Source of the DNA: Candidatus Shapirobacteria bacterium
GTDB lineage: Bacteria; Patescibacteriota; Microgenomatia; UBA12405
Assembly: GCA_028700625.1 (NCBI GenBank)
Contig: JAQVSI010000001.1
Span: forward strand, 7,570-71,569
Direction of reading: 5' to 3'
DNA length: 64,000 bases
The notes beneath the pieces are model-generated. The model was not told where the DNA came from. It saw only the letters and a program-made list of their open reading frames with translations, and did not search any database. Made by a program: the position numbers and the translations under genes. Position 1 is the first letter of the stretch; each line of letters starts with the position of its first letter. This document shows, one piece after another, positions 3,484 through 61,941 of this stretch.

Positions 3484-3546
3484 ATATATATCATACCCTA
3501 AATATTCATCTCTTGGCTATAATTAATTATTAGAAATTAAAGAAAG

Positions 3547-3587
3547 TCGCCCTGTCAAGGGAGATGCCCGAAGGGCAGAGGGTTTTA
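3547..3587. repeat. Double-hairpin palindromic element, copy 1 (intergenic, upstream of ZIP gene): gtcgCCCTGTCAAGGGAGatgCCCGaagGGCagaGGGTTTT
   Basis: Sequence family recurring about 10 times in the window (see findings). Confidence 0.75.
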
Positions 3588-3596
3588 ATTAAATTC

Positions 3597-9536: not shown

Positions 9537-10616
9537 TTAATACCTTATTTCTCTCGTATTTTCATCCAAATATTTAAACTGAATTGTCACCATTTTATTT
9601 TCTTTTTTTAGTTTCTCAAAATTTTTCTCACCCATATTTTCCGGCCACTCAATACAAGCAATATTGTTTTTGAATAATTCAAAAAATTTTATTTCTTCCA
9701 ATTCATAATCGGCACTAATTCTATACAAATCAAAATGCAAAAACTTTTTTTGTCCCCCTTTCGTCAAAGGGGGATGTCCGAAGGACAGGGGGATTTGATA
9801 TTCATTATAAATCACAAAAGTCGGACTCGTGATTTTTTCTTTTACTCCCAATAAATGTCCTATTTTACGGCTAAAAACCGTCTTACCACATCCCAAATCC
9901 CCAGTTAGGGCAAAAATAATTGGTTTATCAATATATTTTTTTAATAAAAATTCAGCAATTTTTCCTGTCTCTTTTTCCGATTTGGAAATCAATGTTTGAC
10001 TATTAGTAGTAATTAAATCACCTCGTCTTAATATTTTTAATTCCGCTTCAGTGGCATCAATTACTGTTGATGGTTTATTTCTTGGCAATTTTCCCGCATC
10101 CACAATCAAATCAATCATCTTCTTTTTCTTATTAGAAAGTGGTCTTAAAAAACTGGCGATTGAATAATTTGGAGTTCGTCCCGATAAATTTGCTGAAGTT
10201 GCTGTTATTGGTTTTTTAAATATTTTTACTAAATCGTGAATATATTTATTGTCTGGAATTCTAATTCCCAAAGTTCCATTTTCTGCTTCTATTCCGAGAG
10301 AGACCTTATGTTTTCCATTACTGACAATTGTAAAAGGGCCGGGTAATAAATTTGTATAAATATTTTGTCCATTTTCATTAAGTTCAACGTATTCCAAGGC
10401 CATTTTTTTATTAAAAACTGCGACCGAAATTGCCTTACCTGTCCATCTATTTTTAAAAGACAATAGTTTTTCTGTCGCTTTTTGGTTAGTTGGATCTACT
10501 GCCAAAATATAAACCGTATCACTTGGAAACACTACCAATCCACCATTTTTTAAAATCCTTGCGGTTTCTGATATAACTTTTTGATAATTATTTTCCTTAA
10601 TCTCCACTATTTTCAT
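9537..10616 (-). CDS. tsaC-tsaE: Fused L-threonylcarbamoyladenylate synthase (TsaC/Sua5/YrdC domain) - TsaE (YjeE P-loop ATPase) bifunctional t6A protein
   Basis: N-terminal half: VFPSDTVYIL, TSANLSGRTP (YrdC signature). C-terminal half: GDLGCGKTVF P-loop, SPTFVIYNEY, HFDLYRI (TsaE signature). Contains an in-frame repeat insertion. Confidence 0.7.
   Translation of the reverse strand: MKIVEIKENNYQKVISETARILKNGGLVVFPSDTVYILAVDPTNQKATEKLLSFKNRWTGKAISVAVFNKKMALEYVELNENGQNIYTNLLPGPFTIVSNGKHKVSLGIEAENGTLGIRIPDNKYIHDLVKIFKKPITATSANLSGRTPNYSIASFLRPLSNKKKKMIDLIVDAGKLPRNKPSTVIDATEAELKILRRGDLITTNSQTLISKSEKETGKIAEFLLKKYIDKPIIFALTGDLGCGKTVFSRKIGHLLGVKEKITSPTFVIYNEYQIPLSFGHPPLTKGGQKKFLHFDLYRISADYELEEIKFFELFKNNIACIEWPENMGEKNFEKLKKENKMVTIQFKYLDENTREIRY
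9753..9796. repeat. Palindromic element, copy 2, located in frame inside the tsaE domain (encodes ..SFGHPPLTKGGQKK.. on the minus strand)
   Basis: tccCCCTTTCGTCAAAGGGGGatgtCCGaaggaCAGGGGGATTT matches the repeat family. Confidence 0.7.
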
Positions 10617-10659
10617 GACACTATTTTATCACCTAAATACAACTTCTCCCTTTTAAAAT

Positions 10660-10708
10660 CCTCCCTGTTAAGGGAGGAAAAAAAGGTTCTTTAGGGAAGG
10701 TAGGTTTT
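10660..10708. repeat. Palindromic element, degenerate copy 3 (intergenic, upstream of valS)
   Basis: CCTCCCTGTTAAGGGAGG hairpin followed by a second hairpin region and GGTTTT. Confidence 0.5.
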
Positions 10709-10733
10709 AACTGTTTTATGCTAAAATACTCGC

Positions 10734-15949: not shown

Positions 15950-15985
15950 AAAGTATATGAATTATACCAAAATTTATAAAGATTT

Positions 15986-16035
15986 CTCCCTTTCATCAAA
16001 GAGAGATGCCCCGCAACAGCGGGGAGAGGGATTTA
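15986..16035. repeat. Palindromic element, copy 4 (between tRNAs): TCTCCCTTTCATCAAAGAGAGATGCCCCGCAACAGCGGGGAGAGGGATTT
   Basis: Repeat family member. Confidence 0.65.
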
Positions 16036-16083
16036 AGACAAAAAACAAAAAAGCCGCCTAATTAAAGACAGCCCCTTTGTTTG

Positions 16084-17495: not shown

Positions 17496-17500
17496 ATAAG

Positions 17501-17545
17501 CCGTCCCTTTTCAAGGGAGGGTGCCCGCAGGGCGGGTGGGTTTTA
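17501..17545. repeat. Palindromic element, copy 5 (canonical): CCGTCCCTTTTCAAGGGAGGGTGCCCGCAGGGCGGGTGGGTTTTA, between convergent xerD and the ATPase gene, abutting the ATPase stop codon
   Basis: Repeat family member; double hairpin plus T-run is terminator-like. Confidence 0.75.
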
Positions 17546-19876
17546 CAATCTCGCCCTTTTTCCTATTTCCGCTTCCACCAATTCTCTTGGTCGGCCATAT
17601 TTCAATGATGATAATTTCTTAATCATCTCGGCTTTTTTAGGATCGCCTGCTTTAAGTCTTTCTGCTGCTGCCACTTTTAATGAAAATGGCTGTTTAGGAA
17701 CTCCATTAATCATAGTTTTCATATATATTTCTCCCGTTCCTAAATTCAATAGATCATGTTCTCCAAATTCTGGTTGAAATTGTTTAGCCAAAAATCCAGC
17801 ATCGGAAATACCAAGTCTAAAACTACTTATAGTACCAACGTTTCCAAACACAGCGTTTTTAACTTCATCGTCCATCTGAGAAATAAATTGATTAGCAACT
17901 GTTAAATTTAAGTGATATTTTCTGGCTTCAGATAAAATAACAGCAAAGTCTTGAGTAGCAAAATTTTGAAACTCATCCACGTATAGATAAAAATCTTTTC
18001 TCAATGCCTCTGGAGTATCTTGTCGGCTCATAGCGGCAATTAAAATCTTAGGAATCAACACTAATCCTAAAAATGCTGAATTTTCTTCTCCAATTGTTCC
18101 TTTAGCTAAATTAATTATCAAAATTTTTCCATCATCCATCGCTTGTCTAAAATTAAAAGAAGAAGTGCTTTGGCCAATAATATTTCTCATCATAGTGTTG
18201 GTAATAAAGCGTCCAAATTTAGACACTATATAATCCAAAACTTCTGATTTGTGGAAATCACTAGTTTGGGCAATTTGATCAGTCCAATAACGTCTCACCA
18301 TTGGATCAGTTAATTTTGGTAATAATTCTTGAACATAATTTTGATCAGTTAAACAACGGACTATTTCAATAAAAGTTGCCCCAGGCTCAATCATAACTGT
18401 TAACATTATATTTCTAATTGCGTGTTCAAATCGAGGTCCCACAATACCAGTTTTATATGGATCATAAAGTTTATACATCAAATTGATAATAGAACTTGTT
18501 ACAAAATCTTTTTGATCTTCTCGGTCACATTCCATCACATTAAAACCCATTGGTCTTTCTGTTTGAGATGGATCAAAATAGATAACATCATCAATTCTCT
18601 CTGGAGGAATTCTTTCCAAAATACTTTCATAAGTATCGTGTGGATCAATAAAACAAACTCCATGACCAGCCTTAATATCTTGAAGTGCCATGTCTGCTAA
18701 AAGCCAAGATTTACCCACACCAGTTTGTCCCACAATATAAAAATGTCGTTGCCTATCATTTGTTGTCATACAAAATTTTTTATTAACTCCGCGATACAGA
18801 TTGTCACCAACATAAAGTCCCTCTTGAGGGGAATCAGTTGGAGCCGGTGCTTTTTTGGCCTTTAACCAATAAATATTTGGAGTTTCAATCGATTTATTTG
18901 GAAAATGGAAGATGCCAGCAATTTCATCTGAAGATAAAACAGTCTTATTTTTAATCCACATTAACACAGGATATTTATAGATGAAATCAGCCATAAACAT
19001 CGATTTGACCATTATTTTTTTGCTAGTAAGCTTATTCCAGGGCGATTCAAATTGGCCAAAACATGCCTTAATATTGGAAATATTCATCTTAGCTATTTCT
19101 TTGCTTGGTGCCACTGCTAGAATTCTTATCACCACTTCAAAACTAGGTTTACTACTTTTTTGTTCAATTGCTTCCAATTGTTTAGCATCGATTTTGTAAG
19201 AAGCCTTTTCGGAATTAGATTCTGATTTTTTAGTACTACTAATAAAACCTCGACCCATTTTTGCCCACTTACCTTCAGTCGGTGATAAAACTAGTTGGAT
19301 TGAAATTGTTTCATTTTCGTTTAATTTAGACAAAGTTGAAGTTACTGCAGCTAAAGGATCAACCGAAATTTCTTTGTAGTTTTTTAAAGGATAATAGGGG
19401 ATTTTTTTTAAAGCCAACCATAAGTATTCTACTTTACCATCGTTAGTATAGATATTTGGTTCTTCAACCACCTTAACATCAGCTCCAGCATAAACACTGT
19501 AAATTTGTTTTTCGATTAAATCTTGATATTTTTCTGGAATTGAAATATAGAACTTAATATCATCATGAGTTCCAATAATTTCCAAAGATACACTTGGTTG
19601 AGAAATTAATGGTTGCAAAAATTTTAATTTTGCCGATTTATGTAGGCTGGAAATTGAATTAATTATTTGTTCACTAGCATCAATTTTTATCTCATTATCT
19701 TGTGGCACTGCTATCAATAAAGTTATCAACTTTAAAGACTTTTCTTCTCTATCTCTCCACTTCCACCACATTAAAACTGCCAAACTTAAAAATCCTAAAA
19801 GCAAGACAATTAATACTATTATTAGTAGTGACATCAAAAACGCAGTTATTTGTTCAACTATCAAACTTTGATTCAT
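17543..19876 (-). CDS. Membrane-anchored FtsK/TraG/VirD4-superfamily P-loop DNA-translocase-like ATPase (777 aa) with ~400 aa non-canonical N-terminal domain
   Basis: Single N-terminal TM; Walker A GQTGVGKS; Walker B LYVDEFQ; LTVANQFISQMDDEVKNAVFGNVGTISSFRLG matches the post-Walker-B Q..SQL..G....FR block of coupling proteins and FtsK. Confidence 0.5.
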   Translation of the reverse strand: MNQSLIVEQITAFLMSLLIIVLIVLLLGFLSLAVLMWWKWRDREEKSLKLITLLIAVPQDNEIKIDASEQIINSISSLHKSAKLKFLQPLISQPSVSLEIIGTHDDIKFYISIPEKYQDLIEKQIYSVYAGADVKVVEEPNIYTNDGKVEYLWLALKKIPYYPLKNYKEISVDPLAAVTSTLSKLNENETISIQLVLSPTEGKWAKMGRGFISSTKKSESNSEKASYKIDAKQLEAIEQKSSKPSFEVVIRILAVAPSKEIAKMNISNIKACFGQFESPWNKLTSKKIMVKSMFMADFIYKYPVLMWIKNKTVLSSDEIAGIFHFPNKSIETPNIYWLKAKKAPAPTDSPQEGLYVGDNLYRGVNKKFCMTTNDRQRHFYIVGQTGVGKSWLLADMALQDIKAGHGVCFIDPHDTYESILERIPPERIDDVIYFDPSQTERPMGFNVMECDREDQKDFVTSSIINLMYKLYDPYKTGIVGPRFEHAIRNIMLTVMIEPGATFIEIVRCLTDQNYVQELLPKLTDPMVRRYWTDQIAQTSDFHKSEVLDYIVSKFGRFITNTMMRNIIGQSTSSFNFRQAMDDGKILIINLAKGTIGEENSAFLGLVLIPKILIAAMSRQDTPEALRKDFYLYVDEFQNFATQDFAVILSEARKYHLNLTVANQFISQMDDEVKNAVFGNVGTISSFRLGISDAGFLAKQFQPEFGEHDLLNLGTGEIYMKTMINGVPKQPFSLKVAAAERLKAGDPKKAEMIKKLSSLKYGRPRELVEAEIGKRARL

Positions 19877-22558: not shown

Positions 22559-22605
22559 AGCCCTCTTTGTCAAGGGAGGGTGCCCGCAGAGTGGGTGGGT
22601 TTAAG
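22559..22605. repeat. Palindromic element, copy 6 (canonical), immediately upstream of dnaG, overlapping its annotated N-terminus
   Basis: GCCCTCTTTGTCAAGGGAGGGTGCCCGCAGAGTGGGTGGGTTTAAGG. Confidence 0.75.
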
Positions 22606-24412
22606 GTATAATAAGCCAGTGGACAATCAAGTAGACGAAATTAAACAAAAACTCAACATTGTCGATGTAATTAATCGCTATGTTCCTCTAAAAAAGCGAG
22701 GTCGTCATCATGTGGCTTGTTGCCCTTTTCATGGCGAAAAAACTCCCTCATTTACAGTCTCAGAAGAAATGCAGATTTTTAAATGTTTTGGTTGTGGTAA
22801 AGCTGGTGATATTTTTACTTTTTTAGAAGAATATGAAAAAATTGATTTTAGAGAAGCGTTGGAAGAATTAGCCAAATTAGCCGGGGTTACTTTAGTTAAA
22901 AGTAGTTTTATTGATCACCAAGAATCCAAGAAGAAATTATTAATCGAAATTAATACTCAAGTTGCCAAATTTTACAACTACATTCTTTTGTCCCATCCCA
23001 TGGGCAAAGAAGCATTAGAATATACCACCAAAAGGGGAATAACCCTAGAAACCATTAAAACTTTTAACATCGGTTTTTCTCCCGACGATTCAAAATATTT
23101 AAGCAATTTCATTTTAAAAAAAGGCTACAAAATTGATGATTTAATTTCTACAGGTACTTTTGGTAAAAGTAATTATGGACCTGGTCTTTATGATCGTTTT
23201 CAAGGTCGTCTAGTTTTTCCTCTTCCAGATTATCGTGGTCATATTGTTGCTTTTGCTGGTCGTATTTTGCCATCAACCAAAAATCCCAACATGGCTAAAT
23301 ACATTAACTCTCCAGAAACTGAAATCTATCACAAAAGCAGTATGCTTTTCGGTTTAAATTTGGCCAAAGAAGCCATTAGAGCTGAAAATTCAGTTATTGT
23401 GGTTGAAGGTGAATTCGATATGATTTCTCCTTATCAATCTGGTTTCAAAAATATAGTTGCTCTGAAAGGCACTGCTTTTACCCAAGATCAACTTCAACTT
23501 CTCCGTCGTTACACCGACACTATTATTCTTGCTCTCGATTCCGATTTTGCTGGCAATAATGCCGCCAGAAAAAGTATCGAACTTGCCGATTCTATGGAAT
23601 TTGATATTAAAGTTTTAAATTTAGGCGATAAATATAAAGATCCAGACGAAGCCATCAAAGACGATCCAGAATTTTTTAAATCACAACTCCTCAAAACCAC
23701 TGATGTTTGGGATTTCATTATTCAGTCTCAATTAAAAAGTAATGATATTAATACTGTCAAAGGCAAAAGAGAAATTTTGAATGTGACTCTTCCTTTTTTA
23801 GTTAAAATAAAAAGTCCTGTCACTAAATCAGATTATTTCAAAAAATTGGCCAATGAAATTAATTCCAACATTGAATCTGTCTATGAAGAATCCCAAAAAT
23901 TTTTACTTTCACCCGTCCGAAGCTTTAACGTAGGAGGGCCAAAACCAGTTGAGCCAGTCGAAGAATCTGAAAGCAAAACCGAAAAATTAGAAGAACTTTT
24001 ATTATCTTTAATTATTGGTGCCAAAAATCCTTCCAAATTGGCCCTAAAACTAAAAAAATATCTCGACCAGCTTACTGTTCCTCGTTTTAAAACTATCGCT
24101 AATTATCTTCTGGAAAAAGAAAATTTTTCTTTAAAAGAAATAATGGATTCTCTTCCCGCTGAAATCCAACCTCTTTTCCAAGAAATTTATTTTGAATCAG
24201 AAAAAAACCAGATCGATTCCAAAGATCGTCTATCAGAAATCAAAAAAGCTACTTCCAAAATATCTTCAATTTTATTGAAAAAGAGGTTAAATCAGCTTAG
24301 TAATCAAATAAGTAAATTAGAATCAGAAGAAGATGAAGAGCTTCTAAAACAAGTCGAAGTGGAATACAAACAAGTCCTAGAAAAACTCCATCAACTCCAA
24401 ATTAATAAATAA
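22580..24412 (+). CDS. dnaG: DNA primase DnaG
   Basis: CHC2 zinc finger (CPFHGEKTPSF..FKCFGCGKAGD), TOPRIM region (VVEGEFDMIS). True start probably slightly downstream of the repeat (near VDNQVDEIK). Confidence 0.8.
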   Translation: MPAEWVGLRYNKPVDNQVDEIKQKLNIVDVINRYVPLKKRGRHHVACCPFHGEKTPSFTVSEEMQIFKCFGCGKAGDIFTFLEEYEKIDFREALEELAKLAGVTLVKSSFIDHQESKKKLLIEINTQVAKFYNYILLSHPMGKEALEYTTKRGITLETIKTFNIGFSPDDSKYLSNFILKKGYKIDDLISTGTFGKSNYGPGLYDRFQGRLVFPLPDYRGHIVAFAGRILPSTKNPNMAKYINSPETEIYHKSSMLFGLNLAKEAIRAENSVIVVEGEFDMISPYQSGFKNIVALKGTAFTQDQLQLLRRYTDTIILALDSDFAGNNAARKSIELADSMEFDIKVLNLGDKYKDPDEAIKDDPEFFKSQLLKTTDVWDFIIQSQLKSNDINTVKGKREILNVTLPFLVKIKSPVTKSDYFKKLANEINSNIESVYEESQKFLLSPVRSFNVGGPKPVEPVEESESKTEKLEELLLSLIIGAKNPSKLALKLKKYLDQLTVPRFKTIANYLLEKENFSLKEIMDSLPAEIQPLFQEIYFESEKNQIDSKDRLSEIKKATSKISSILLKKRLNQLSNQISKLESEEDEELLKQVEVEYKQVLEKLHQLQINK

Positions 24413-24413
24413 T

Positions 24414-24453
24414 TCCCATCCTTTTGTCAAAGGAGGGGTTAGGGGTAGATTTT
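24414..24453. repeat. Palindromic element, variant copy 7, in dnaG-rpoD spacer
   Basis: CCCATCCTTTTGTCAAAGGAGGGGTTAGGGGTAGATTTTA. Confidence 0.55.
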
Positions 24454-24481
24454 AAAAGAATTTTCCTATACAATATACCGC

Positions 24482-39528: not shown

Positions 39529-40722
39529 ATGATTTCACAACCGTTAGCTTCATTACTTCGTCCTAAAAATTTAGAAGATTTTGTCGGTCAAACTCATCTG
39601 GTTGGTCCTCAAAAACCGCTTCGTTTGGCAATCGAAAACCACCAAGTTTTTTCCATGATTTTTTGGGGTCCTCCTGGAGTTGGTAAAACCACATTAGCTC
39701 GAATTTTAGCCAGTGAAGCCGAGGCTACTATTCACGAGTTATCGGCAGTTTCTGCCAGTAAAGATGATATTAAAAAAATTATTGCCGCTTATCGTCCTAT
39801 GGAAAAGAATATTCTTTTTCTAGATGAAATTCATCGTTTTAATAAAGCTCAACAAGATTTTCTACTTCCCTCAGTTGAATCGGGAAAATTAATTTTAATC
39901 GGTGCCACCACTGAAAATCCCAGCTTTGAGGTCATTTCTCCACTTCTTTCTCGTTGTCGAGTTTTTGTTTTAAAAGAATTATCCGACGATGAAATGAGTC
40001 AAATCATCGATAAGGCAGTTCAAAAATTAGCTCCCCTGTCAAGGGGGGGTGGTCGTAAGACCGGAGGGGTTTTAATCAAAAAAGACGCCAAAGATTGGAT
40101 TATTCAAATGGCCAATGGTGATGCTCGTCAATGTATTACCATCATGGATAACGCTTTTACTCTTTATGGCGATTTAAAACTAGAAAGTTTAAAACAAGCC
40201 CTTCAAAATTCTTTTCTCCGTTTCGACAAAAAAGGTGAGGAGCATTACAATACCATTTCCGCTTTTATTAAATCCATGCGCGCCAGTAATGTCGACGCCT
40301 CTCTTTATTATTTAGCCCGAATGATTACTGCTGGTGAAGATCCAAAATTTATTGCCCGTCGTATGGTTGTTTTTGCTAGTGAAGATATTGGCATTGCCAA
40401 TTCTTCAGCCCTGATGTTGGCCAATAATGTTTTCGATGCAGTTATGAAAATTGGCTATCCAGAATGTCGTGAAAATTTAGCCCATGGCGTGGTTTATTTA
40501 GCAAAATCACCTAAAGATAGGTCAGCTTATGAAGCCTATTTATCTGCTCTTAAAGACGTTGAGATTCATGGTAATTTACCAATACCGCTTAATCTCCGCA
40601 ACCCCGAAACCAAATTAATGGAAGACATTGGCTATGGTAAAGGTTACGAAAAATATACCAAAGAGTCTCTTTTACCAAATAAAATTAAAGATAAAAAATA
40701 TTTTATTGAAAAGAAAAAATAA
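39529..40722 (+). CDS. rarA: Replication-associated recombination protein A (RarA/MgsA AAA+ ATPase), carrying an in-frame repeat insertion
   Basis: FWGPPGVGKTTLARILA Walker A, LFLDEIHRFNKAQQD, NGDARQ sensor region. Confidence 0.8.
   Translation: MISQPLASLLRPKNLEDFVGQTHLVGPQKPLRLAIENHQVFSMIFWGPPGVGKTTLARILASEAEATIHELSAVSASKDDIKKIIAAYRPMEKNILFLDEIHRFNKAQQDFLLPSVESGKLILIGATTENPSFEVISPLLSRCRVFVLKELSDDEMSQIIDKAVQKLAPLSRGGGRKTGGVLIKKDAKDWIIQMANGDARQCITIMDNAFTLYGDLKLESLKQALQNSFLRFDKKGEEHYNTISAFIKSMRASNVDASLYYLARMITAGEDPKFIARRMVVFASEDIGIANSSALMLANNVFDAVMKIGYPECRENLAHGVVYLAKSPKDRSAYEAYLSALKDVEIHGNLPIPLNLRNPETKLMEDIGYGKGYEKYTKESLLPNKIKDKKYFIEKKK
40029..40074. repeat. Palindromic element, copy 8, in frame within rarA (encodes ..APLSRGGGRKTGGVLI..)
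   Basis: AGCTCCCCTGTCAAGGGGGGGTGGTCGTAAGACCGGAGGGGTTTTA. Confidence 0.7.
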
Positions 40723-40724
40723 AA

Positions 40725-40973
40725 ATGTATTTTGTCTACATTATTCAATGTAATGATCAAACTCTTTACACTGGTATTACTACCGATCTAGACAGAAGGA
40801 TTAAAGAACATAATAATTCAAAACTCGGTGCTAAATATACTAAAATTAGACGACCAGTAAAATTAGTTTATTCAAAAGAATTTATTGACAGGTCTGAAGC
40901 TTCAAAAGAAGAATCAAAAATTAAAAAATTATCACGCCAAGAAAAATTAGATTTATTAAAAAATTTTAAATAA
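40725..40973 (+). CDS. GIY-YIG nuclease family small protein (UPF0213/YhbQ-like)
   Basis: FVYIIQCNDQTLYTGITTDLDRRIKEH matches the GIY-YIG motif. Confidence 0.7.
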   Translation: MYFVYIIQCNDQTLYTGITTDLDRRIKEHNNSKLGAKYTKIRRPVKLVYSKEFIDRSEASKEESKIKKLSRQEKLDLLKNFK

Positions 40974-41021: not shown

Positions 41022-43139
41022 ATGTTTTCTTTACTAATCACTTTTCTATTATTTTTTATAGTTACAGTTCAACCTGTTAACGCTCAATTATTAGAAGAAT
41101 CCACTTCCAGCGCTCAAATTATCCCCACTGAAATTCCAATAACCGAAATCACACCAATCCCAACCGATATCGCTTCAACCTTAACAGAAAATATTTTAAT
41201 CCCCACCGAAACACCAACATTAACCCCAACTTTAATTCCAACTCCAACTCCAACTCCAACTCCAACTCCAAAAGTTATTGAAAGTGAATCCATAAAATTT
41301 CCCCAAATCACCACCGACAAGGCTGATTATTCTCCAACCGATATTGCTATTATTTCTGGTAATAATTTTTTATCAAATACTCAATACATTTTAAATATCA
41401 CTTCAGACAATTTAAATGTTAATTATCAAATTAATTCCGACGAATCCGGTTCTTTTATTTATAATTATCAACTCGATGGTATTTATCGACCAAATTATAA
41501 AGTTGAAGCCAGAGATTTAAACAACAATATTATTTCCTTCATCACTTTTACCGACAAAAGAAGTGTCCTTTCGGCCACTGTTAATGGACAAAATTCAATC
41601 AATGTTTTTTCCAGAGATTCAATTACTGTCGGAGTAAGTGTTAACACAGATTGGTGGTGGTTTTGGAACAATGATTGGAGATCAACTTCCTGGAGGTTTG
41701 GTAATTCTGGAGAGTGGAATTGTGTTGACACTCCAAACCATCTTAAATCAGGCGATTATTCAGAATTTTTTCAAATAAATGCTCCCATAAATCCCAAAAA
41801 ATATCAATTACAAATCAGAATTCATGGTTTAGAAAATTGTGGAATTTTATTTAAAAGTGATATTTTTACTCTAAAAGATGCTATAACAGTTTCTCTTCCC
41901 GACACCACTCCTCCAATTATTACCATCGATTTATACAACACAAATTTAACCAATCAAGATATTATTGTCTCAGCTTCTACCAATGAAGGCACTTTAAATT
42001 TTACTTCTCACACTTTTGAATCAAATGATTCTTTTACTTTTATTGCCACTGATAGTGTTGGTAACATTGCTACTGAAATTATAACTATCAATAATATCGA
42101 TAAAACCCCACCAACTCTTTTAAACAAAACCGAATTTGGAAACAGTTGGTACAACACCGATCAACTTTCAGTTTTTAATTTTACCGATGAAAATGGCGTT
42201 ATTTCTGGTAATAATCCAACTTGCCAAATTTTCAGCGAAGGTTCTTTTCAAACTTGTTCTGTTGGTTTAAATGTTTGTGATACCGCTGGTAATTGCAATA
42301 CTGATTTAATTTTTTCCAATAGTGCCAACATCGACAAAACTAAACCAATTTTGGGTTTTTCCATAACTCCATCTTCTTCTAATGCCGATAATAATTGGTA
42401 TAGAACTCAGCCAGAAATAAATTTAACTAATATTGAAAATAACCCTTTTATTTTCCAATACAAATGGGATTCTGAAAATAGTTGGACTAATTATAATTTT
42501 TGTTTAAGACCTTCTTTTGAAGGTTCACATACTCTTTATTTCCAATCTCAAGATTTGGCTGGTAATCAGACAAGTTCTCTTATTGAAATTAAATGGGACC
42601 AAACTGAACCATCTATTGCCCCTCAAAACATAAGTGCCAATCCAAACAACACTAGTAATAGTGTTTCTACTATCAAATGGGACCAAGCCATCGACAATAT
42701 TGGCATTGATAAATATGAAATTAAATGGACTTTAAATAACCCTAATAATCCATTTTCTTATTCTAAAACAGTTGGGTTTGATGTTAGAGAAACTGAAATT
42801 GATAAATTAATTGAAGGTCGTTGGACTGTTCAGGTTTTTGCTATCGATCCAAGTGGTTTAAAAAAAGACAATGCTATCGATTTATTTATTATTAAAAATA
42901 GCGAAATTATTTTTAATGATGTTCCTGTAAAAACAGTCTTGGCTCAAAAAAAATTATTAACAGAAATTAAAGATACTGATAATCAAATTATTCCGATTCT
43001 AACTTCATTTCCAACTGTTTTAGGCACTTCAACCACTAAAAAGAAATTTAATTTAAAATGGTTTCTTTTAGTTACAATTATGGTTCTTTTATATATCAGC
43101 ATCCGCAAGTACAACAATAAATCAAAAAAAATAATATAG
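41022..43139 (+). CDS. Large cell-surface protein (705 aa): signal peptide, Pro/Thr-rich linker, beta-rich repeats, C-terminal TM plus basic tail
   Basis: Architecture read from translation; (PT)n linker; C-terminal WFLLVTIMVLLYISIRKYNNKSKKII anchor. Confidence 0.45.
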   Translation: MFSLLITFLLFFIVTVQPVNAQLLEESTSSAQIIPTEIPITEITPIPTDIASTLTENILIPTETPTLTPTLIPTPTPTPTPTPKVIESESIKFPQITTDKADYSPTDIAIISGNNFLSNTQYILNITSDNLNVNYQINSDESGSFIYNYQLDGIYRPNYKVEARDLNNNIISFITFTDKRSVLSATVNGQNSINVFSRDSITVGVSVNTDWWWFWNNDWRSTSWRFGNSGEWNCVDTPNHLKSGDYSEFFQINAPINPKKYQLQIRIHGLENCGILFKSDIFTLKDAITVSLPDTTPPIITIDLYNTNLTNQDIIVSASTNEGTLNFTSHTFESNDSFTFIATDSVGNIATEIITINNIDKTPPTLLNKTEFGNSWYNTDQLSVFNFTDENGVISGNNPTCQIFSEGSFQTCSVGLNVCDTAGNCNTDLIFSNSANIDKTKPILGFSITPSSSNADNNWYRTQPEINLTNIENNPFIFQYKWDSENSWTNYNFCLRPSFEGSHTLYFQSQDLAGNQTSSLIEIKWDQTEPSIAPQNISANPNNTSNSVSTIKWDQAIDNIGIDKYEIKWTLNNPNNPFSYSKTVGFDVRETEIDKLIEGRWTVQVFAIDPSGLKKDNAIDLFIIKNSEIIFNDVPVKTVLAQKKLLTEIKDTDNQIIPILTSFPTVLGTSTTKKKFNLKWFLLVTIMVLLYISIRKYNNKSKKII
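41236..41266 (+). repeat. Hexanucleotide (CCAACT)n microsatellite encoding the PTPTPT linker
   Basis: About 5 perfect tandem hexamers. Confidence 0.6.
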
Positions 43140-43192
43140 CCCTCCTTGTCAAGGGAGGGTGGTCCCGCTGCTGCGGGACCGGGTGGGTTTTA
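43139..43192. repeat. Palindromic element, long copy 9, between convergent genes, ending at the helicase stop codon
   Basis: GCCCTCCTTGTCAAGGGAGGGTGGTCCCGCTGCTGCGGGACCGGGTGGGTTTTA. Confidence 0.75.
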
Positions 43193-44512
43193 ATATTTGC
43201 TTTCCACAAACGTCAACGCAAAACCAGTTTTATCACCTCGACCAGTTCGTCCAATTCGGTGAACATAATCTTCGTAATTGTTTGGTTTATCAAAATTAAT
43301 TACATGAGTAATATCGGCCACATCTAAGCCTCTGGCTGCCACATCAGTAGCAATTAAAATATTGATTTCGTTTTCTTTAAATTTTCTTAAAGTTGTTTGT
43401 CTTTGGTATTGAGCTTTGTCACCATGAAGTGATCCAACCCTAAATCCTTTTTGGCCTAAACCAACAGATATTTTTTCAACCATCGATTTAGTTGCTCCAA
43501 AAACCAACACTTTTTTAAATTCTTCTTGTGCTAATAATCTATGCAAAGTAATTTCTTTTTCTTCTCGTCTTACTCTAACAATGTTTTGTTCCACATTTTT
43601 AGAACTTTCTTGAGTTTTAACCGAAATTTTAGCTGGATTAGTTAAAAATGAATCAATTAAGTGTTCAATTTTTTTATTAACTGTCGCGGAAAAGAATAAT
43701 GTTTGATGAGGGGAGGGAATTTGCTTTACAATTTCTTTAATATCTTCCACAAAACCCATATCCAACATTCGATCAACTTCGTCTAAAACCACAGTATTAA
43801 GTCGAGAAAAATTAATTATTCTTCGTTTGGCTAAATCTTTAATTCTTCCTGGAGTTCCAACAATAATATGTGGATCTCTTTTAATATCCAAAATTTGTTC
43901 TCTAATATAAGCTCCGCCAATTGCTAAAGCCACATAAACTCTAAGTCCAAAAGTGAAAGATCTAATTTCTTGTTTAATTTGTTGGGCCAACTCTCTAGTT
44001 GGTGCCAAAACAATTATTCTTTTGCTTGAGTCCAATAAAATTTGATTAATTAAAGGCAATGCAAAAGCGGCAGTTTTTCCAGTTCCAGTATTGGCAACTC
44101 CTAAAACATCTCGGCCTTCTAAAATACGAGGAATAATTTCATCTTGAATAGAAGTTGGTTTTAAATAACCTTTATTTTTAATGTTGTCCATTAAAACCGG
44201 ACTAAAATCAAAATCGGAAAATTTATTTTTAACAACAACATCTTCGATTTTTATAACTGGTTCAGCTCTTCTAATAAACATTGAGGTGTCAATTCGGCTT
44301 TCAAAACTTCGGTTTTTTCGACCACCAAACCTACTGCCACTATTTCCATTTCTTGGGCTAAAATTACTTCGACCTCCAAATCGGATTTGATTACCATTGG
44401 ATTTTTGTCGACTTCTTGCACCAAAGTTATTGGTGAATTTATTCTGATACATAATATTTGTTGACCCAAACCTGTTTTTCGGCCTTAACCTAGAAACTTG
44501 CGGTGCCCACAA
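43190..44512 (-). CDS. DEAD-box ATP-dependent RNA helicase with Gly/Arg-rich N-terminal extension
   Basis: GTGKTAAF (motif I), DEVD, SAT, HRIGRTGR. Confidence 0.85.
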   Translation of the reverse strand: MWAPQVSRLRPKNRFGSTNIMYQNKFTNNFGARSRQKSNGNQIRFGGRSNFSPRNGNSGSRFGGRKNRSFESRIDTSMFIRRAEPVIKIEDVVVKNKFSDFDFSPVLMDNIKNKGYLKPTSIQDEIIPRILEGRDVLGVANTGTGKTAAFALPLINQILLDSSKRIIVLAPTRELAQQIKQEIRSFTFGLRVYVALAIGGAYIREQILDIKRDPHIIVGTPGRIKDLAKRRIINFSRLNTVVLDEVDRMLDMGFVEDIKEIVKQIPSPHQTLFFSATVNKKIEHLIDSFLTNPAKISVKTQESSKNVEQNIVRVRREEKEITLHRLLAQEEFKKVLVFGATKSMVEKISVGLGQKGFRVGSLHGDKAQYQRQTTLRKFKENEINILIATDVAARGLDVADITHVINFDKPNNYEDYVHRIGRTGRGDKTGFALTFVESKY

Positions 44513-45931: not shown

Positions 45932-47662
45932 ATGACGTCAAACTTTTCCACTATAAAAATTGCTGGTCCTGCTGGTTCTGGCATTAAATCTGCCGGTCAA
46001 CTTTTTTCCAAATTTTTAATTGATCATAGTTTTAATTTGGTCGATTATAGTGAATATCCATCTCTGGTTCGTGGTGGTCACAATACTTATCAAATTACTT
46101 TTTCCGACGAAAAAGTTTTTTCCACTCATTTTAATGTGGATCTATTTTTTTCTGTCTATCCAAATCATTGGCAACAACACTTAGAAGAATTTACTAAAGA
46201 TACTTTAATTTTTTCTGATGAGGATTTCTCTAAAGTCAAAACTAAAGCTAAGTTTTTACGTCTGCCTTTAAAAGATATGGCCACTGAAGTTGGTAGTCTT
46301 TTAGTTGTTAATACACTTTGTCTAGGAGTAGCTGCTTATCTTTATGATTTAGATACTACTCTCATTAAAGATCTTATTTGTGAAACTTACGGTAAACACG
46401 GTGACTTAAACTGTAATGCTTTTAATATTGCTTATCAATATGCATTTAAAAACTTTTTTAAGTTTCAAATTAAAATAAAAAAACCAAGCAAAAAGATAAA
46501 AATGGGTTTTTATGACGGTAACGAAGCTTTTGGTTGGGGATTTATCAAGGGTGGTGGCATTTTTTATTCCGCTTATCCAATGACTCCAGCCACCGGTGCT
46601 CTCCATTTTTTGGCTGCCAAACAAACAGAATATAAATTAACAGTAATCCATCCAGAAGATGAAATTTCTTCAGCTAACATGGCTGCTGGTGCTGCTTTCA
46701 CTGGGGCTCGTAGTGCCACAGGCACTTCAGGTGGTGGTTTTGCTCTCATGAATGAAGCTATCAGTTTCTGTGGAATTACTGAAATTGGTATGGTTTATTA
46801 TTTAGTATCAAGACCAGGTCCAGCCACTGGCCTTCCAACGTGGACAAGTCAAGGAGATCTTCTTCATGCTATCTATTCTGGTCATGGTGAATTTCCCAAA
46901 GTTGTTCTTGCTCCAGGAGATCTCGATGAATCTTTTGAATTAAGCCATACTGCTCTTGATCTAGCTGCTCATCTCCAAACTCCAATAATAGTTTTAAGCG
47001 ATAAATTAATCGGTGAATCAAGTGGTAGTACTAATTATTTCCCAGAAATGGAAGTAAAAATTGATAAGGGTGAAATTCTAAATGAAATTGAAGATGAAGA
47101 TTATAAAAGATATGCTTTCACTAAAAACGGCATTTCTCCACTTTCTCTTCCAGGCACTCCAAATGGTGAATTTTTATCCAACAGCTATGAACATGACGAA
47201 TATGGTTTTGCCACAGAAGATGCTAATCTTTCAGAAAAAATGTCTAAAAAGAGAATGTTAAAAAATAAAGTTGCTTTAACTATTTGTCCAAAAGCTAATT
47301 TTTTTGGATCTAAAAAAGCCAAAAAATTAATTATTGCCTGGGGTTCTCCCAAAGGAGCTATTCTTGAAGCCTTAAAATTAATAGAAAATAAAGAAGATTT
47401 TGCTTTTTTACAATTAAAAACTCTCTGGCCAATTAATCCTGAAATTAAAACTATTATTAATGCTTTTAAAGAAATTATTGTTATAGAAAACAATGGTACT
47501 AGCCAACTAGTTACTCTTCTTAAATCTCAATTCGATTTTAATCCAACTAGAATAATCAATAAAAACAATGGCCGTCCTTTCTTTCCAGAAGAAATCATTA
47601 AATTATTAAAAAGTTATCCTGTCAAAGGAAATGCACGCAGGGCAGAGGGTTTAAAACTATGA
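45932..47662 (+). CDS. 2-oxoacid:ferredoxin oxidoreductase alpha subunit (fused gamma-alpha, KorA-like); C-terminal residues encoded by a repeat copy
   Basis: N-terminal gamma-like IKIAGPAGSGIKSAGQLF; alpha domain GNEAFGWGFIKGGGIFYSAYPMTPAT. Confidence 0.7.
   Translation: MTSNFSTIKIAGPAGSGIKSAGQLFSKFLIDHSFNLVDYSEYPSLVRGGHNTYQITFSDEKVFSTHFNVDLFFSVYPNHWQQHLEEFTKDTLIFSDEDFSKVKTKAKFLRLPLKDMATEVGSLLVVNTLCLGVAAYLYDLDTTLIKDLICETYGKHGDLNCNAFNIAYQYAFKNFFKFQIKIKKPSKKIKMGFYDGNEAFGWGFIKGGGIFYSAYPMTPATGALHFLAAKQTEYKLTVIHPEDEISSANMAAGAAFTGARSATGTSGGGFALMNEAISFCGITEIGMVYYLVSRPGPATGLPTWTSQGDLLHAIYSGHGEFPKVVLAPGDLDESFELSHTALDLAAHLQTPIIVLSDKLIGESSGSTNYFPEMEVKIDKGEILNEIEDEDYKRYAFTKNGISPLSLPGTPNGEFLSNSYEHDEYGFATEDANLSEKMSKKRMLKNKVALTICPKANFFGSKKAKKLIIAWGSPKGAILEALKLIENKEDFAFLQLKTLWPINPEIKTIINAFKEIIVIENNGTSQLVTLLKSQFDFNPTRIINKNNGRPFFPEEIIKLLKSYPVKGNARRAEGLKL
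47617..47656. repeat. Palindromic element, copy 10, forming the last ~13 codons of the oxidoreductase alpha subunit (..PVKGNARRAEGLKL*)
   Basis: TCCTGTCAAAGGAAATGCACGCAGGGCAGAGGGTTTAAAA. Confidence 0.65.
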
Positions 47663-57564: not shown

Positions 57565-58859
57565 TGATTAAAGAAAAAAAAATTCCCACAATATTGGGAC
57601 TATTTATTTTAATAGGGGGACTTTTTGTTGGTGTTTTATTAAACAACAAAAATACTAATTTTATTTCTAAAGCGAGTAGTGATTGCGTTCCCCAAAACCC
57701 ACAAATAACCAATATAACAGACAATTCCGTTGCTTTATCTTTTGTTACTGAATCTTCTTGTCTTTCAACCTTGTTGATTAATAATCAAATTATTAATAAT
57801 TCTGCTGTTTTAGCTAATAGTCAGAAAAGTAAAATTCATTATTTTGATGTCACTAATTTATCAGACAACACTCAATACGAGTATTCTTTTGTTAACGACG
57901 GTAAATCTTATCCTCAATCTCCAAAAATTAAGACGGCTGAAAAACCAAACGGATCAATTCCTTCTTCAAATTTGGCTTGGGGTAGAGTTTTTACTCCAGA
58001 GTTAAAATCAGCAAGTAAGGTTATGCTTTTTATTAATATTCCTGGAGCTGCACCTTTATCTGCTTTAGTGACCACTTCTGGTAATTGGAATATTTCTCTA
58101 GTTAATAGTTTTAATGAATCAAAAACCAACAGATTTAATCCACCTCAAGATACAGTTGAAGAGATTATTGTCATTGATCAGGAAAAACAAACCACTCAAA
58201 TTAGTGCCAATACTTCACAAAACAATCCAGTTCCAGATATTATCTTAGGTCAAAATCAATTTTCCTTACTACCTGTCACTTTTAATGCAGAAACAAACAC
58301 TGGTTTTTTGCCTTCAATTTCTCCAGTTCAAAGTTCTAAAGAATTAGATATTTTAAATCCAAAAGATAACGAACCTCTTTCTACAAAAAAGCCAGATTTT
58401 TTTGGAACTGGGCCAATTAATTCTAAAATAAAAATAGAAGTGCACTCACCCACTGTCTACAAAGGGGAAGTAACTACTCAAAGTGATGGTTCCTGGAATT
58501 GGTCTCCACCATCAGATTTAACTCCAGGAGAACATACTATTACTGCTACTGTTATCGAAAATGGTGTTGAAAAAATTATTTCTCGAAAATTTATCGTTCT
58601 TGCTGCTGACAATTCTCTTGCTTATTCAGCCTCTTCTTCCGCAATTACCTCGACTCCAACTCCAACTACAACCCCAACCCTAACTCCAACCAAAATAATC
58701 ACTCCCACTGTCATTCCAACCATTCGTACTAGTAAACCAAGTACAAGCTCTGGTGTTCCTACAACGGGAAATTCATTTCCTACTTTTATTTTAATTTTAA
58801 CAGCCATTTCTTTTATTAGCCTTTCTCTTTTCTCTCTTAGAAAAGTAATAAAAAACTAA
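57564..58859 (+). CDS. Surface protein (431 aa): N-terminal TM/signal, beta-rich domains, Pro/Thr linker, C-terminal VPTTG plus hydrophobic plus basic tail
   Basis: Read from translation; the C-terminus resembles a sortase-type sorting signal (VPTTG..FILILTAISFISLSLFSLRKVIKN). Confidence 0.4.
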   Translation: MIKEKKIPTILGLFILIGGLFVGVLLNNKNTNFISKASSDCVPQNPQITNITDNSVALSFVTESSCLSTLLINNQIINNSAVLANSQKSKIHYFDVTNLSDNTQYEYSFVNDGKSYPQSPKIKTAEKPNGSIPSSNLAWGRVFTPELKSASKVMLFINIPGAAPLSALVTTSGNWNISLVNSFNESKTNRFNPPQDTVEEIIVIDQEKQTTQISANTSQNNPVPDIILGQNQFSLLPVTFNAETNTGFLPSISPVQSSKELDILNPKDNEPLSTKKPDFFGTGPINSKIKIEVHSPTVYKGEVTTQSDGSWNWSPPSDLTPGEHTITATVIENGVEKIISRKFIVLAADNSLAYSASSSAITSTPTPTTTPTLTPTKIITPTVIPTIRTSKPSTSSGVPTTGNSFPTFILILTAISFISLSLFSLRKVIKN

Positions 58860-59833: not shown

Positions 59834-61319
59834 TAAAATTAAGAATTTTTTAATTCCACTGTCTTTATTAGTTTTGATGCTAGCTACTCGTTTTTGTTTT
59901 CTAAATTGGGGTAATGGTTTTTTCTTCAATCCAGACGAAAATAATATGGCCGCTTCAATAGCTCAAATGAGTTATTCCAATCTTAATCCTGATTTTTTTG
60001 CTTATGGTCAGTTTCCTCTTTTTCTAACTTTTTTTACTACTCCAAATTATAATTTTTCGACCATTATTTTAACTCTTCGTTTTTGGTCAGCCATTTTTTC
60101 TTGTCTTTCTCTTTTTTTCTTTTATTTAATTTCTAAAAATATTTTTAAATCTCCCAAAGTTAGTTTTATTTTTGTTTTACTGTTAATTTTTACCCCAGGT
60201 CTAATTCAATTAGCTCATTTTGGTACTACCGAATCTCTTTTGATTTTTGTTTTTTCCGCTAACATTTTTTTGTCTTTAAAATATTATCAAAATCAACAAA
60301 AAAAATATTTTCTTTTTTCTGTTTTAATTAGTGCCATAGGTCTTTCTTCAAAAATAACTGCCATCTTTTTTATACTTCCTTTTTACTTTTCTCTTTTTTT
60401 TATTTTTTTAGAAAATAAAAAAATATTAAATTTTATTTCCACCACCTTAATTTTTACTTTTTTCTTTTTATCTTTATCTATTCTTTTTTCACCATTTAAT
60501 ATTATTGATTTTTCCAATTTTAAATCAACCATGATTCATGAAACTTCAATTGCCACTGGTCAACTTAAAATTTTTTATACTCATCAATTTGAAAATTCCT
60601 ATGCCTATTTATTTCAATTTAAAAATATTTTTCCTTATACAAATGGCATTTTTATATTTACTTTATCTTTTTTTGGTTTTTTTATTTTTTTAAAAAATAA
60701 AATTAGAAAAGAATTACTTTTAGTTTTTCTTCCATCAATAATTTATTTTCTCTATGTTGGTCAACTTTTTGTTAAATGGACACGTTTTGTTTCTCCTCTC
60801 TTTTTTATTGGACCATTTTTTTGTCTTTTTATTTTTAAAAAATTTAAAAATGTTTTTCTGACTTTTATTTTAATTATTTTAATGATTAGTCCAGGAATTT
60901 ATTTTTTTCAAAAATATTTTTTACCAGACAATAGAATAACAGCCTCTAATTGGATTAATTCCAATATTCCTCTAAATTCTTATATTTTATCTGAATCCGG
61001 TAATGTTATTAATTTACCTTTATTTTCTTCAAAATTTACTGTAAATAATTTTGATTTTTATAATCCAGAAAATCTAAGCAATTTATCAGCAGAAATAAAC
61101 AAAAGTGATTATATTATTGTTCCGTCTCGACGTGTTTTTAAAAACAATTTTTCATTGACACAAAATTATTATCAACAATTATTTTCAGGAGAAATTGGTT
61201 TTAACGAAATTAAAAAATTTAATAATCAAAAAAGTTTATTTTTAAATTCCGAAAATGCTGAAGAAACATGGTCAGTTTTTGATCATCCAACCATCAGAAT
61301 ATATCAACATGTCAAATAA
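59811..61319 (+). CDS. GT-C fold polytopic membrane glycosyltransferase
   Basis: 502 aa, many TMs, NPDENN motif in first extracytoplasmic loop. Confidence 0.45.
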   Translation: MVLSMQFNKIKNFLIPLSLLVLMLATRFCFLNWGNGFFFNPDENNMAASIAQMSYSNLNPDFFAYGQFPLFLTFFTTPNYNFSTIILTLRFWSAIFSCLSLFFFYLISKNIFKSPKVSFIFVLLLIFTPGLIQLAHFGTTESLLIFVFSANIFLSLKYYQNQQKKYFLFSVLISAIGLSSKITAIFFILPFYFSLFFIFLENKKILNFISTTLIFTFFFLSLSILFSPFNIIDFSNFKSTMIHETSIATGQLKIFYTHQFENSYAYLFQFKNIFPYTNGIFIFTLSFFGFFIFLKNKIRKELLLVFLPSIIYFLYVGQLFVKWTRFVSPLFFIGPFFCLFIFKKFKNVFLTFILIILMISPGIYFFQKYFLPDNRITASNWINSNIPLNSYILSESGNVINLPLFSSKFTVNNFDFYNPENLSNLSAEINKSDYIIVPSRRVFKNNFSLTQNYYQQLFSGEIGFNEIKKFNNQKSLFLNSENAEETWSVFDHPTIRIYQHVK

Positions 61320-61941
61320 ATATTTAACAAAAAAAACTATTAATTTATTTCCTCTTTTTTGGCCAAGATTTTATGTCTATTTAAGATCAATAGTATTGCC
61401 TCTTTTTCAAATTGAATCTCTTTTACCCCCAAAAGGATCAATTTTAGATGTTGGCTGCGGTTATGGATTTACTTCAATTTTTTTTGCTCTTAAAAATAAA
61501 AAGCGTCAAATTTTTGGCTCAGAAATTGAATCAAAAAGAGTTTTATTGGCGAAAAAAGTTTCAAAATCTATTTCAAATATCTCGTTTGAAACTTCAGATT
61601 TGATCAATAAAAATAAATCAAAATTCGATGTTGTTTTGGCAATCGATCTTCTTCACCATATAAATTTTTCTCAAAAAAAGACTTTTTTAAAAGATGCTTC
61701 TTTAAAACTAAAGCCAAAAGGACTTTTAATTATTAAAGATATCGATACTACACCTATACATAAATATTTTTGGAATTATATTCATGATTCAATCATGACC
61801 AAATTTTCCAAACTTTATTTTTTATCTTCTAATCAAATAGAAAATCTTTTAATTAAAAATAATTTTAAAATTATTAAAAAAGGAAAATATAAAAACCTTT
61901 TTTACCCACATATTTTTTATGTTTGTCAAAAAAACTTTTAA
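61255..61941 (+). CDS. Class I SAM-dependent methyltransferase
   Basis: ILDVGCGYGFTSIFFAL motif I; LAIDLLHH motif. Confidence 0.6.
   Translation: MLKKHGQFLIIQPSEYINMSNKYLTKKTINLFPLFWPRFYVYLRSIVLPLFQIESLLPPKGSILDVGCGYGFTSIFFALKNKKRQIFGSEIESKRVLLAKKVSKSISNISFETSDLINKNKSKFDVVLAIDLLHHINFSQKKTFLKDASLKLKPKGLLIIKDIDTTPIHKYFWNYIHDSIMTKFSKLYFLSSNQIENLLIKNNFKIIKKGKYKNLFYPHIFYVCQKNF

Follow-up and report, generated by a model that had tools for sequence, protein, structure and literature searches.

The rarA locus and its insert

We analysed a 64,000-nucleotide stretch (hereafter the window) of a Candidatus Shapirobacteria genome (GenBank assembly GCA_028700625.1, contig JAQVSI010000001.1, positions 7,570 to 71,569 of the forward strand) in which the gene rarA (mgsA) carries a short, GC-rich palindromic element in frame with its coding sequence. 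The window has a GC content of 31% and its proteins match Candidatus Shapirobacteria, of the Microgenomates group of the Candidate Phyla Radiation (CPR). The host gene is an open reading frame (ORF) encoding MgsA_C (Pfam, 2.9e-48), AAA_assoc_2 and AAA domains, which identify its product as RarA/MgsA; the closest solved structure is E. coli MgsA (PDB 3PVS, E 1e-88). An earlier note on this DNA had proposed an element inserted in frame in rarA, and this is borne out: GCTCCCCTGTCAAGGGGGGGTGGTCGTAAGACCGGAGGGGTTTTA occupies positions 40030-40074 of the plus strand and is read in the rarA frame as the 15 residues APLSRGGGRKTGGVL. The host gene and the parts of the insert are as follows.

39529..40722, plus strand: rarA (mgsA) ORF, host of the insert; 397 aa, RuvB_N/AAA, AAA_assoc_2 and MgsA_C
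40030..40074, plus strand: element copy in rarA, in frame, read as APLSRGGGRKTGGVL; covariance model 52 bits, E 1e-16
40031-40037 paired with 40042-40048, plus strand: hairpin 1, loop GTCA
40051-40054 paired with 40059-40062, plus strand: hairpin 2, loop GTAA
40063-40069 and 40070-40073, plus strand: G-rich tail and T-run

A comparison of the segment with its flanks, as the earlier note had proposed, sets it apart from its host: the insert core has a GC content of 62% versus 36% in the remainder of rarA, and it uses codons that are scarce elsewhere in the gene (GGG occurs nowhere else, AGG once and CTG twice). In an AlphaFold model of the window RarA (mean pLDDT 74) the insert is a coil at residues 171-184 whose pLDDT drops under 50 at 173-179, and is flanked by the well-predicted AAA+ lid helices 153-170 and 185-195. 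HMMER pairs it with a 10-residue variable loop of E. coli MgsA (KTRGYGGQDIV, itself containing RG and GG), indicating that the site is a variable loop and not conserved sequence. The placement originally suggested, between the AAA+ module and the C-terminal domain, was correct as to the protein and not as to the domain linker, the site being the loop that joins the first two helices of the AAA+ lid, with Pfam AAA on one side and AAA_assoc_2 on the other. Through this copy rarA has gained a net 36 nt, in frame, within a surface loop. As the ORF stays intact, translation of the insert would most simply yield a Gly/Arg/Pro-rich loop that RarA tolerates. Neither translational bypass nor splicing of the insert needs to be invoked, as all intragenic copies leave the frame open.

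A gene for an 82 aa protein with a GIY-YIG nuclease domain (40725-40973) begins 2 nt past the rarA stop codon. A role for it as a homing nuclease was dropped because the gene is syntenic in relatives with filled and with empty rarA. The window RarA has no match above 88% in the protein collection, whereas the window Sua5-TsaE protein matches at 100% (a Shapirobacteria metagenome-assembled genome; JGI Ga0172381_10090025); one possibility is that the record in question has a different gene call for the filled rarA.

A dispersed family of short GC-rich repeats

A repeat search of the window recovered seven related copies, and a covariance model built from these and run with filters off raised the number to 10 (at 3544, 9753, 10657, 15985, 17500, 22559, 24416, 40028, 43138 and 47611; E-values 1e-18 to 3e-4). 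All are on the plus strand, and the model found no credible minus-strand match in the 64-kb window. The density is thus approximately one copy per 6 kb, and the majority of copies are intergenic. Copies outside rarA are located as follows.

3544..3590, plus strand: intergenic, between divergent solute-binding protein (minus) and ZIP transporter (plus) genes
9753..9800, plus strand: copy in sua5-tsaE (minus-strand ORF 9537..10616), antisense in frame as PLSFGHPPLTKG
10657..10712, plus strand: degenerate intergenic copy with an AT-rich hairpin 2, in a divergent promoter region
15985..16038, plus strand: intergenic, between two minus-strand tRNA genes
17500..17547, plus strand: between convergent genes, beginning 5 nt past the stop codon of a xerC-like gene
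22559..22606, plus strand: intergenic, immediately upstream of dnaG
24416..24456, plus strand: short form without hairpin 2, beginning 4 nt past the dnaG stop codon
43138..43194, plus strand: between convergent genes, with a long hairpin 2; fold -33.8 kcal/mol, z -4.1
47611..47657, plus strand: decayed copy encoding the last 16 residues of a pyruvate:ferredoxin oxidoreductase (POR) subunit (ORF 45932..47662)

The repeat unit is GC-rich, 40-57 nt long, and ordered 5' to 3' as a (T/A)AG edge, hairpin 1, TG, hairpin 2, a G-rich tail and TTT(T)A(A). Hairpin 1 is conserved in sequence, with a C/T-rich arm, a near-invariant GTCA loop and an A/G-rich arm (CCCTCC-GTCA-GGAGGG), the last of which is repeated in the G-rich tail. 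Hairpin 2 (11-26 nt) differs wholly in sequence between copies while its pairing is always kept, and in a short form of the repeat it is replaced by TTA or TA. Compensatory changes are found in both helices: across 34 copies, 30 cells had changed on both sides versus 9.0 expected, a count that none of 500 shuffles equalled and that drops when the partner columns are slid, bearing in mind that the alignment was fitted to the covariance model.

The rarA copy had been described as inserted in the opposite orientation, its partner being copy 9753-9800; this holds relative to their host genes, and on the DNA both lie on the same strand. It had also been claimed that both orientations of the element are free of stop codons in at least one frame, as in-frame spread would require. 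Such frames do exist, the rarA copy having one open on the plus strand and two on the minus strand, which is unremarkable for GC-rich DNA; since most copies are intergenic, they are better seen as a filter on surviving coding copies than as a design feature of the element.

Two copies share nucleotides with the ends of their neighbouring genes. The 3' TTA of copy 17500 (17543-17545) doubles as the TAA stop of the minus-strand gene 17543..19876; the 5' AG of copy 43138 completes the TAG stop (43137-43139) of ORF 41022..43139, and its 3' TTA (43190-43192) is the stop of the minus-strand gene 43190..44512. Some of the intergenic copies located between stop codons may have been co-opted as bidirectional terminators. 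Two gene groups are bracketed by copies: dnaG (22559-22606 and 24416-24456) and the divIC and xerC-like pair (15985-16038 and 17500-17547). The complement of the hairpin 1 loop (for example 43140-43159, minus strand) reads TTGACA, the -35 consensus, followed by a Shine-Dalgarno-like AAGGAGG; no matching -10 box was present at the copies inspected.

At the Rfam gathering threshold only tRNAs were identified in the window and no family corresponded to the repeat, and a relaxed Rfam search returned a single chance match (18.5 bits against a threshold of 37). Pattern scans of a phage collection and IMG/VR for the repeat gave chance matches only, or none. We found no account of such an element in CPR bacteria in the literature on palindromic, miniature inverted-repeat transposable (MITE), REP-associated tyrosine transposase (RAYT) or REPIN elements.

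Filled and empty sites among relatives

Gene order around rarA is conserved among relatives, making orthologous sites comparable (related loci are numbered L and homologous proteins P). We surveyed 120 RarA homologues at 74% identity or more, with a separate alignment of 29 homologues. A baseline of 48 residues from SRCR to NGDAR (..KL-ETK-ISKDAK..) is present in 88 of the 120, and the other 32 (27%) have 6-22 additional residues at exactly the insert point. The segment does not align to conserved RarA residues, the nearest orthologues lack it, and the in-frame insertion proposed in the earlier note is upheld, as one specific to certain lineages, even at close range: P0001, which shares the window's insert at only 86% identity to the window RarA, is 97.9% identical to the empty protein P0018. 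In DNA, the empty site of L162 reads GAAAAATT / AGAAATTAAA / ATTTCT and the filled site of L161 reads AAAAAAAT / AGCTCCCC...GGGGTTTTG / ATTAAA, so that 46 nt stand in place of 10 nt (net +36) and a neighbouring codon is altered too.

Filled alleles are dispersed over the RarA tree, adjoining empty sisters. In four filled/empty sister pairs the 33 flanking residues are 70-79% identical, versus 94-96% for the remaining protein. The window and L161 inserts agree at 43 of 45 nt, yet the proteins differ at 14% of residues, and the hairpin 2 that they share is found in no other copy of either genome, which argues for an old allele and against a recent jump within this genome. We lean towards a scenario in which this old insert-bearing allele would have moved between lineages by homologous recombination, with a short flank co-converted. 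The RarA loop is also a general sink, simply permissive for such elements, given that unrelated GC-rich palindromes occupy it in other CPR lineages (L039, L094, L100, L117, L110 and L131, and likewise L143, L114, L006, L008 and L021). Among these are a 15-bp perfect palindrome and palindromes of the GTCATTGCGAG and GTCATCCTCGCGAAAGCGGGGATC types.

Insertion into coding sequence is not confined to rarA. The peptide encoded by copy 9753-9800, PLSFGHPPLTKG, coincides with a 12-residue gap relative to H. influenzae YjeE (PDB 1HTW). At this tsaE site just 14 of 73 matched homologues have the baseline length, and 59 (~80%) have 9-39 additional residues. All three antisense frames of the repeat (-0, -1 and -2) are represented there, as PLSFGHPPLTKG, NPPALRAPSLxKG and LCPxGISLDRA, indicating independent insertions. 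A single sua5-tsaE gene in L165 holds three copies (10014-10052, 10693-10741 and 10869-10916), and the decayed copy at the end of the POR subunit is orthologous to nearly intact copies in L003 (20864) and L013 (16056). Further intragenic copies in relatives were observed at L096 5183-5220 and L009 20926-20983, one lying antisense close to the end of an ORF of 908 aa, another within a minus-strand ORF. Elsewhere the tsaE site contains AT-rich, apparently palindromic inserts (SSSSLSSYKV, NFQFPISNFQ and RCQISDFR, in P0126, P0129, P0136 and others), and on this basis a second kind of coding repeat may exist.

Intergenic sites are similarly polymorphic. Between the helicase-like and Nramp-like genes, L003 has a copy (17785) and the window and L002 have none. 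Where the convergent fn3 and helicase-like genes meet, the site is filled in the window, L001 (short form) and L083, and L003 has two copies in tandem; this junction is empty in L002 and L013, with an overlap of the two stop codons as TTAG. Identical copies also recur at unrelated sites: L003 copies 16297 and 17785 share 42 identical nt, and window copy 3544 is the same as the POR-end copy of L003. With filled and empty orthologous sites, identical copies at unrelated sites and three frames at one tsaE site, the repeat family behaves as selfish mobile DNA.

Strand polarity

Across ~50 copies at ~19 loci, relatives included, the G-rich reading lies on the C-rich chromosome strand whatever the direction of the genes. 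Most of these copies are at non-orthologous sites, and every real match agrees with the sign of the GC skew of its own locus. Minus-strand covariance matches that overlap plus matches (for example L102 10485 and L165 10030) were rejected as reversed copies, being echoes of the palindromic hairpin 1. GC skew in the window is negative throughout positions 1-64000. Genes on the two strands agree in the sign of their GC3 skew (window: -0.35 for plus-strand and -0.28 for minus-strand genes, even though most genes lie on the C-rich strand; L098: +0.34 and +0.27), indicating that the asymmetry is one of the chromosome strand, independent of coding direction. In L098, L096, L106 and L091 the local gene order of the window is kept, the skew is opposite and the copies are on the opposite strand.

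A purely transcriptional role does not explain this orientation, as some copies are antisense to the gene that contains them and others occupy divergent promoter regions or the space between minus-strand tRNA genes. No copy in minus orientation serves any of the ~20 minus-strand genes of the window. The polarity instead points to a DNA-level, replication-linked process. A one-sided G/C disparity along the whole chromosome has been reported for related Microgenomates, with unidirectional replication as the proposed cause (PMC7143001). Polarity is for that reason stated here relative to skew, the leading and lagging strands being putative assignments. The negative skew of the window is in keeping with this disparity as known from some Microgenomates (PMC7143001).

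There is precedent for strand-polar hairpin elements lacking target duplication in Y1/HUH single-strand transposition at the lagging-strand template, into which IS200/IS605 elements insert (PMC6006769). By analogy, polarity would arise by insertion through single-stranded DNA at the replication fork, in the manner of Y1/HUH systems of the IS200/IS605 or RAYT type. We regard this tentatively as the leading candidate among possible causes, without holding it to be probable in absolute terms.

Alternative explanations

The RarA segment might be a native, selected loop that merely resembles the repeat. The RG/GG-containing loop of E. coli MgsA at the same place would fit such an origin, as would the better conservation of the insert than of the proteins between the window and L161 (43/45 nt versus 86%). 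However, the segment is missing in a 98%-identical orthologue as well as in 73% of close homologues, matches the intergenic family with an E-value of 1e-16, is foreign to rarA in GC content and codon use, and shares its position with unrelated palindromes in other lineages, which together make a native loop highly improbable. Only slightly more credible is the proposition that the copies are ordinary intrinsic (bidirectional) terminators alike by convergence, with the rarA copy acting as an internal attenuator. The structure is indeed followed by a T-run and preceded by an A-rich flank, several copies were flagged by a terminator scan, five of the 10 window copies begin 0-6 nt past a plus-strand stop codon, and two sit between convergent genes. 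As an account of the family, however, termination is very unlikely: orientation tracks strand skew and not gene direction; minus-strand genes go unserved by minus-orientation copies; there are copies antisense in tsaE, in divergent promoter regions and amid minus-strand tRNA genes; a G-rich spacer of 6-8 nt separates hairpin 2 from the T-run; terminator-like sites are not enriched (10 versus 9.7 expected); and identical copies occur at unrelated sites.

Two further alternatives concern how the repeats move and why they are polar, and we consider each of them unlikely, if less so than the preceding two. One is that they are repetitive extragenic palindromes (REPs) mobilised or maintained by a RAYT-like Y1 protein, with the rarA hot spot being the REP-rich flank of its gene. 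In many relatives a Y1_Tnp gene does separate rarA from the GIY-YIG gene (L003, L008, L009, L015, L082, L090, L106 and L161-163; for example L161 3170-3856 and L003 11928-12524, and frameshifted in L162 and L163). Its product scores 32-35 bits against the Pfam Y1_Tnp cut-off of 23, has REP_Tyr_transpos as its top NCBIfam model (52-69 bits, under the 80-bit cut-off), and can be aligned with E. coli TnpA-REP (PDB 4ER8) at its HUH and Y motifs; strand polarity is moreover compatible with single-strand HUH chemistry. Yet the palindrome within and beside this gene is GTAGAGACG(N)CGTCTCTAC and not the rarA-type element, which is without a 5' GTAG and without inverted doublets. Nor does the gene track the element: the window has 10 copies and no Y1 gene in 64 kb, Y1 is present with an empty rarA site in L003, L009, L015, L090 and L106, and it is absent with a filled rarA in the window, L013 and L081. 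The other alternative is that polarity is not a footprint of insertion, and reflects either a single tolerated orientation (a hairpin or G-quadruplex being harmful on one template) or a polar signal like KOPS/FtsK. In its favour are the strictness of the polarity at ~1 copy per 6 kb, GGGNGGG tracts and full G-quadruplex (G4) motifs in 14 of 41 copies, slightly better folding of the G-rich strand in 32 of 41 copies (p 1.5e-5), and an excess of wobble pairs on that strand (20 U-G versus at most 2 mismatches of the opposite kind). Against this, the folding difference is just 0.7 kcal/mol, the G4 motif is missing from most copies, and a signal needs neither a 50-nt double hairpin nor an intragenic location. 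Copies also decay (47611 and 10657), and a 21-kb locus, L002, is without a single copy where its syntenic counterpart L003 has four. Considered separately, the G-quadruplex was rejected as a defining feature, the rarA copy being among those without the motif, and strand-specific DNA folding was judged a weak cause of polarity given the small energy difference.

Within the Y1 ORF itself, one to three perfect palindromes of the form GTAGAGACG(N6-10)CGTCTCTAC are read in frame (peptides ETPRGASL, VETHHDASL and CRDVARYVST). One such palindrome lies upstream of Y1 in L003 (11850), and a lone remnant follows rarA in L007.

Taking these lines together, the explanation that we consider probable is that of a small dispersed CPR repeat, present in frame in rarA, which is selfish, mobile and strand-polar. 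Several observations weigh against parts of it. No transposase was found in the window, either among ten small ORFs scanned or by tblastn with the Y1 protein of relatives, and the RAYT-like Y1 gene contains and adjoins the other palindrome, of which the window has no copy. Four filled/empty comparisons yielded neither a target-site duplication nor a conserved target, the flanks being only loosely conserved as WAG on one side and TTTA(A) on the other, and the cleanest filled/empty pairs are replacements of 6-10 nt in place of clean insertions. As single-stranded DNA the two strands fold near-equally (-10.9 versus -10.2 kcal/mol), and the leading and lagging strands are assigned from skew in a group whose skew is atypical (PMC7143001). 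Translation of the rarA insert, finally, is read from an intact ORF and not from direct observation. More speculatively, Shapirobacteria and their relatives could harbour an undescribed class of very small 'coding palindromes' that spread by replication-coupled, single-strand insertion and have time and again extended loops of housekeeping proteins (RarA, TsaE/Sua5 and POR), their polarity marking the one-sided asymmetry, and possibly the unidirectional replication, reported for Microgenomates.

Implications and other features of the window

In-frame selfish palindromes have so far been treated as near-unique to Rickettsia. That an unrelated CPR bacterium with an ultra-small genome shows them too suggests that they are a general outcome wherever a genome is compact, AT-rich and short of intergenic space. 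Strict polarity provides a simple sequence marker of replication direction in uncultured organisms and a handle on how the element moves. As the inserts inflate and diversify conserved proteins, they can also mislead alignments, phylogenies and gene callers applied to CPR genomes.

Two other repeat features of the window were noted. Thr/Pro-rich linkers encoded by (ACTCCA)n repeats are present in three large secreted or surface-type proteins (9024-9118, 41201-41283 and 58643-58720), and the region 60001-62000 has a GC content of 22% with several long T-rich direct repeats.

Comparison with known systems

Rickettsia palindromic elements (RPEs) are described, in the summary of Ogata et al. (2000, 2002) given in PMC10969869, as palindromic sequences of ~100-150 bp in families RPE-1 to RPE-10 that are found in frame, and translated, in Rickettsia housekeeping genes. 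The Shapirobacteria repeat resembles them as a palindromic repeat of a small, AT-rich, reduced genome that is present between genes and also in frame in unrelated housekeeping genes at loop-tolerant sites, as in rarA, tsaE, the POR C-terminus and many homologues. It differs in being 40-57 nt long where RPEs are ~100-150 bp with a conserved peptide, in its variable hairpin 2, G-rich tail and T-run, and in having a CPR and not an alphaproteobacterial host; a relation in sequence was judged only by the lack of an Rfam match. It is also strictly strand-polar, and we know of no report of strand polarity for RPEs.

Like REPs and their assemblies (BIMEs and REPINs) with the associated RAYTs (PMC3333891, PMC6006769), the repeats are imperfect palindromes, short and rich in GC, that occur many times over and mostly close outside genes, and a RAYT-like gene is present in genomes related to the window. 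Unlike REPs, they have a conserved YTGTCAAGG motif in the hairpin 1 loop and a (T/A)AG 5' edge without GTAG. Their copies stand alone or follow one another directly in tandem, always on one strand, and do not form inverted BIME/REPIN doublets. They flank no RAYT gene as in a REPtron, there is no Y1 gene in the window, and copies are frequently intragenic and in frame. With miniature derivatives of IS200/IS605 they share an orientation apparently tied to the replication strand, and they may also resemble them in having hairpins in place of terminal inverted repeats and in the target duplication, of which none was seen; IS200/IS605 elements have a fixed target of 4-5 nt next to the left end. The repeats are, however, much smaller than any ends-only derivative known, the sequence of their hairpin 2 is not conserved, and neither a conserved target tetranucleotide nor a TnpA was found.

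The GC clusters of yeast mitochondria are mobile GC-rich hairpin islands in an AT-rich genome that can sit in coding regions, and the present repeat is similar in both respects. SPRITE, a terminator-like MITE of Streptococcus pneumoniae (listed in PMC10969869), has a comparable terminator mimicry by a hairpin plus T-run. The hosts and sequences of both are different from those described here. To our knowledge, strict strand polarity is a feature of neither the mitochondrial GC clusters nor SPRITE. Intrinsic terminators proper are distinguished from the repeat by its G-rich spacer before the T-run, its want of co-orientation with minus-strand genes, and its intragenic, antisense and promoter-region copies.

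The repeat is functionally closest to RPEs and structurally and mechanistically closest to REP and IS200/IS605 hairpin elements. It is a member of neither the RPEs nor the REPs, and it departs from defining features of its closest analogues in size, GTAG, doublets and cognate transposase. Beyond the earlier note, the analysis adds the strict strand polarity, the extent to which housekeeping genes in this clade have taken up in-frame insertions, and the spread of filled alleles by recombination that we favour above.

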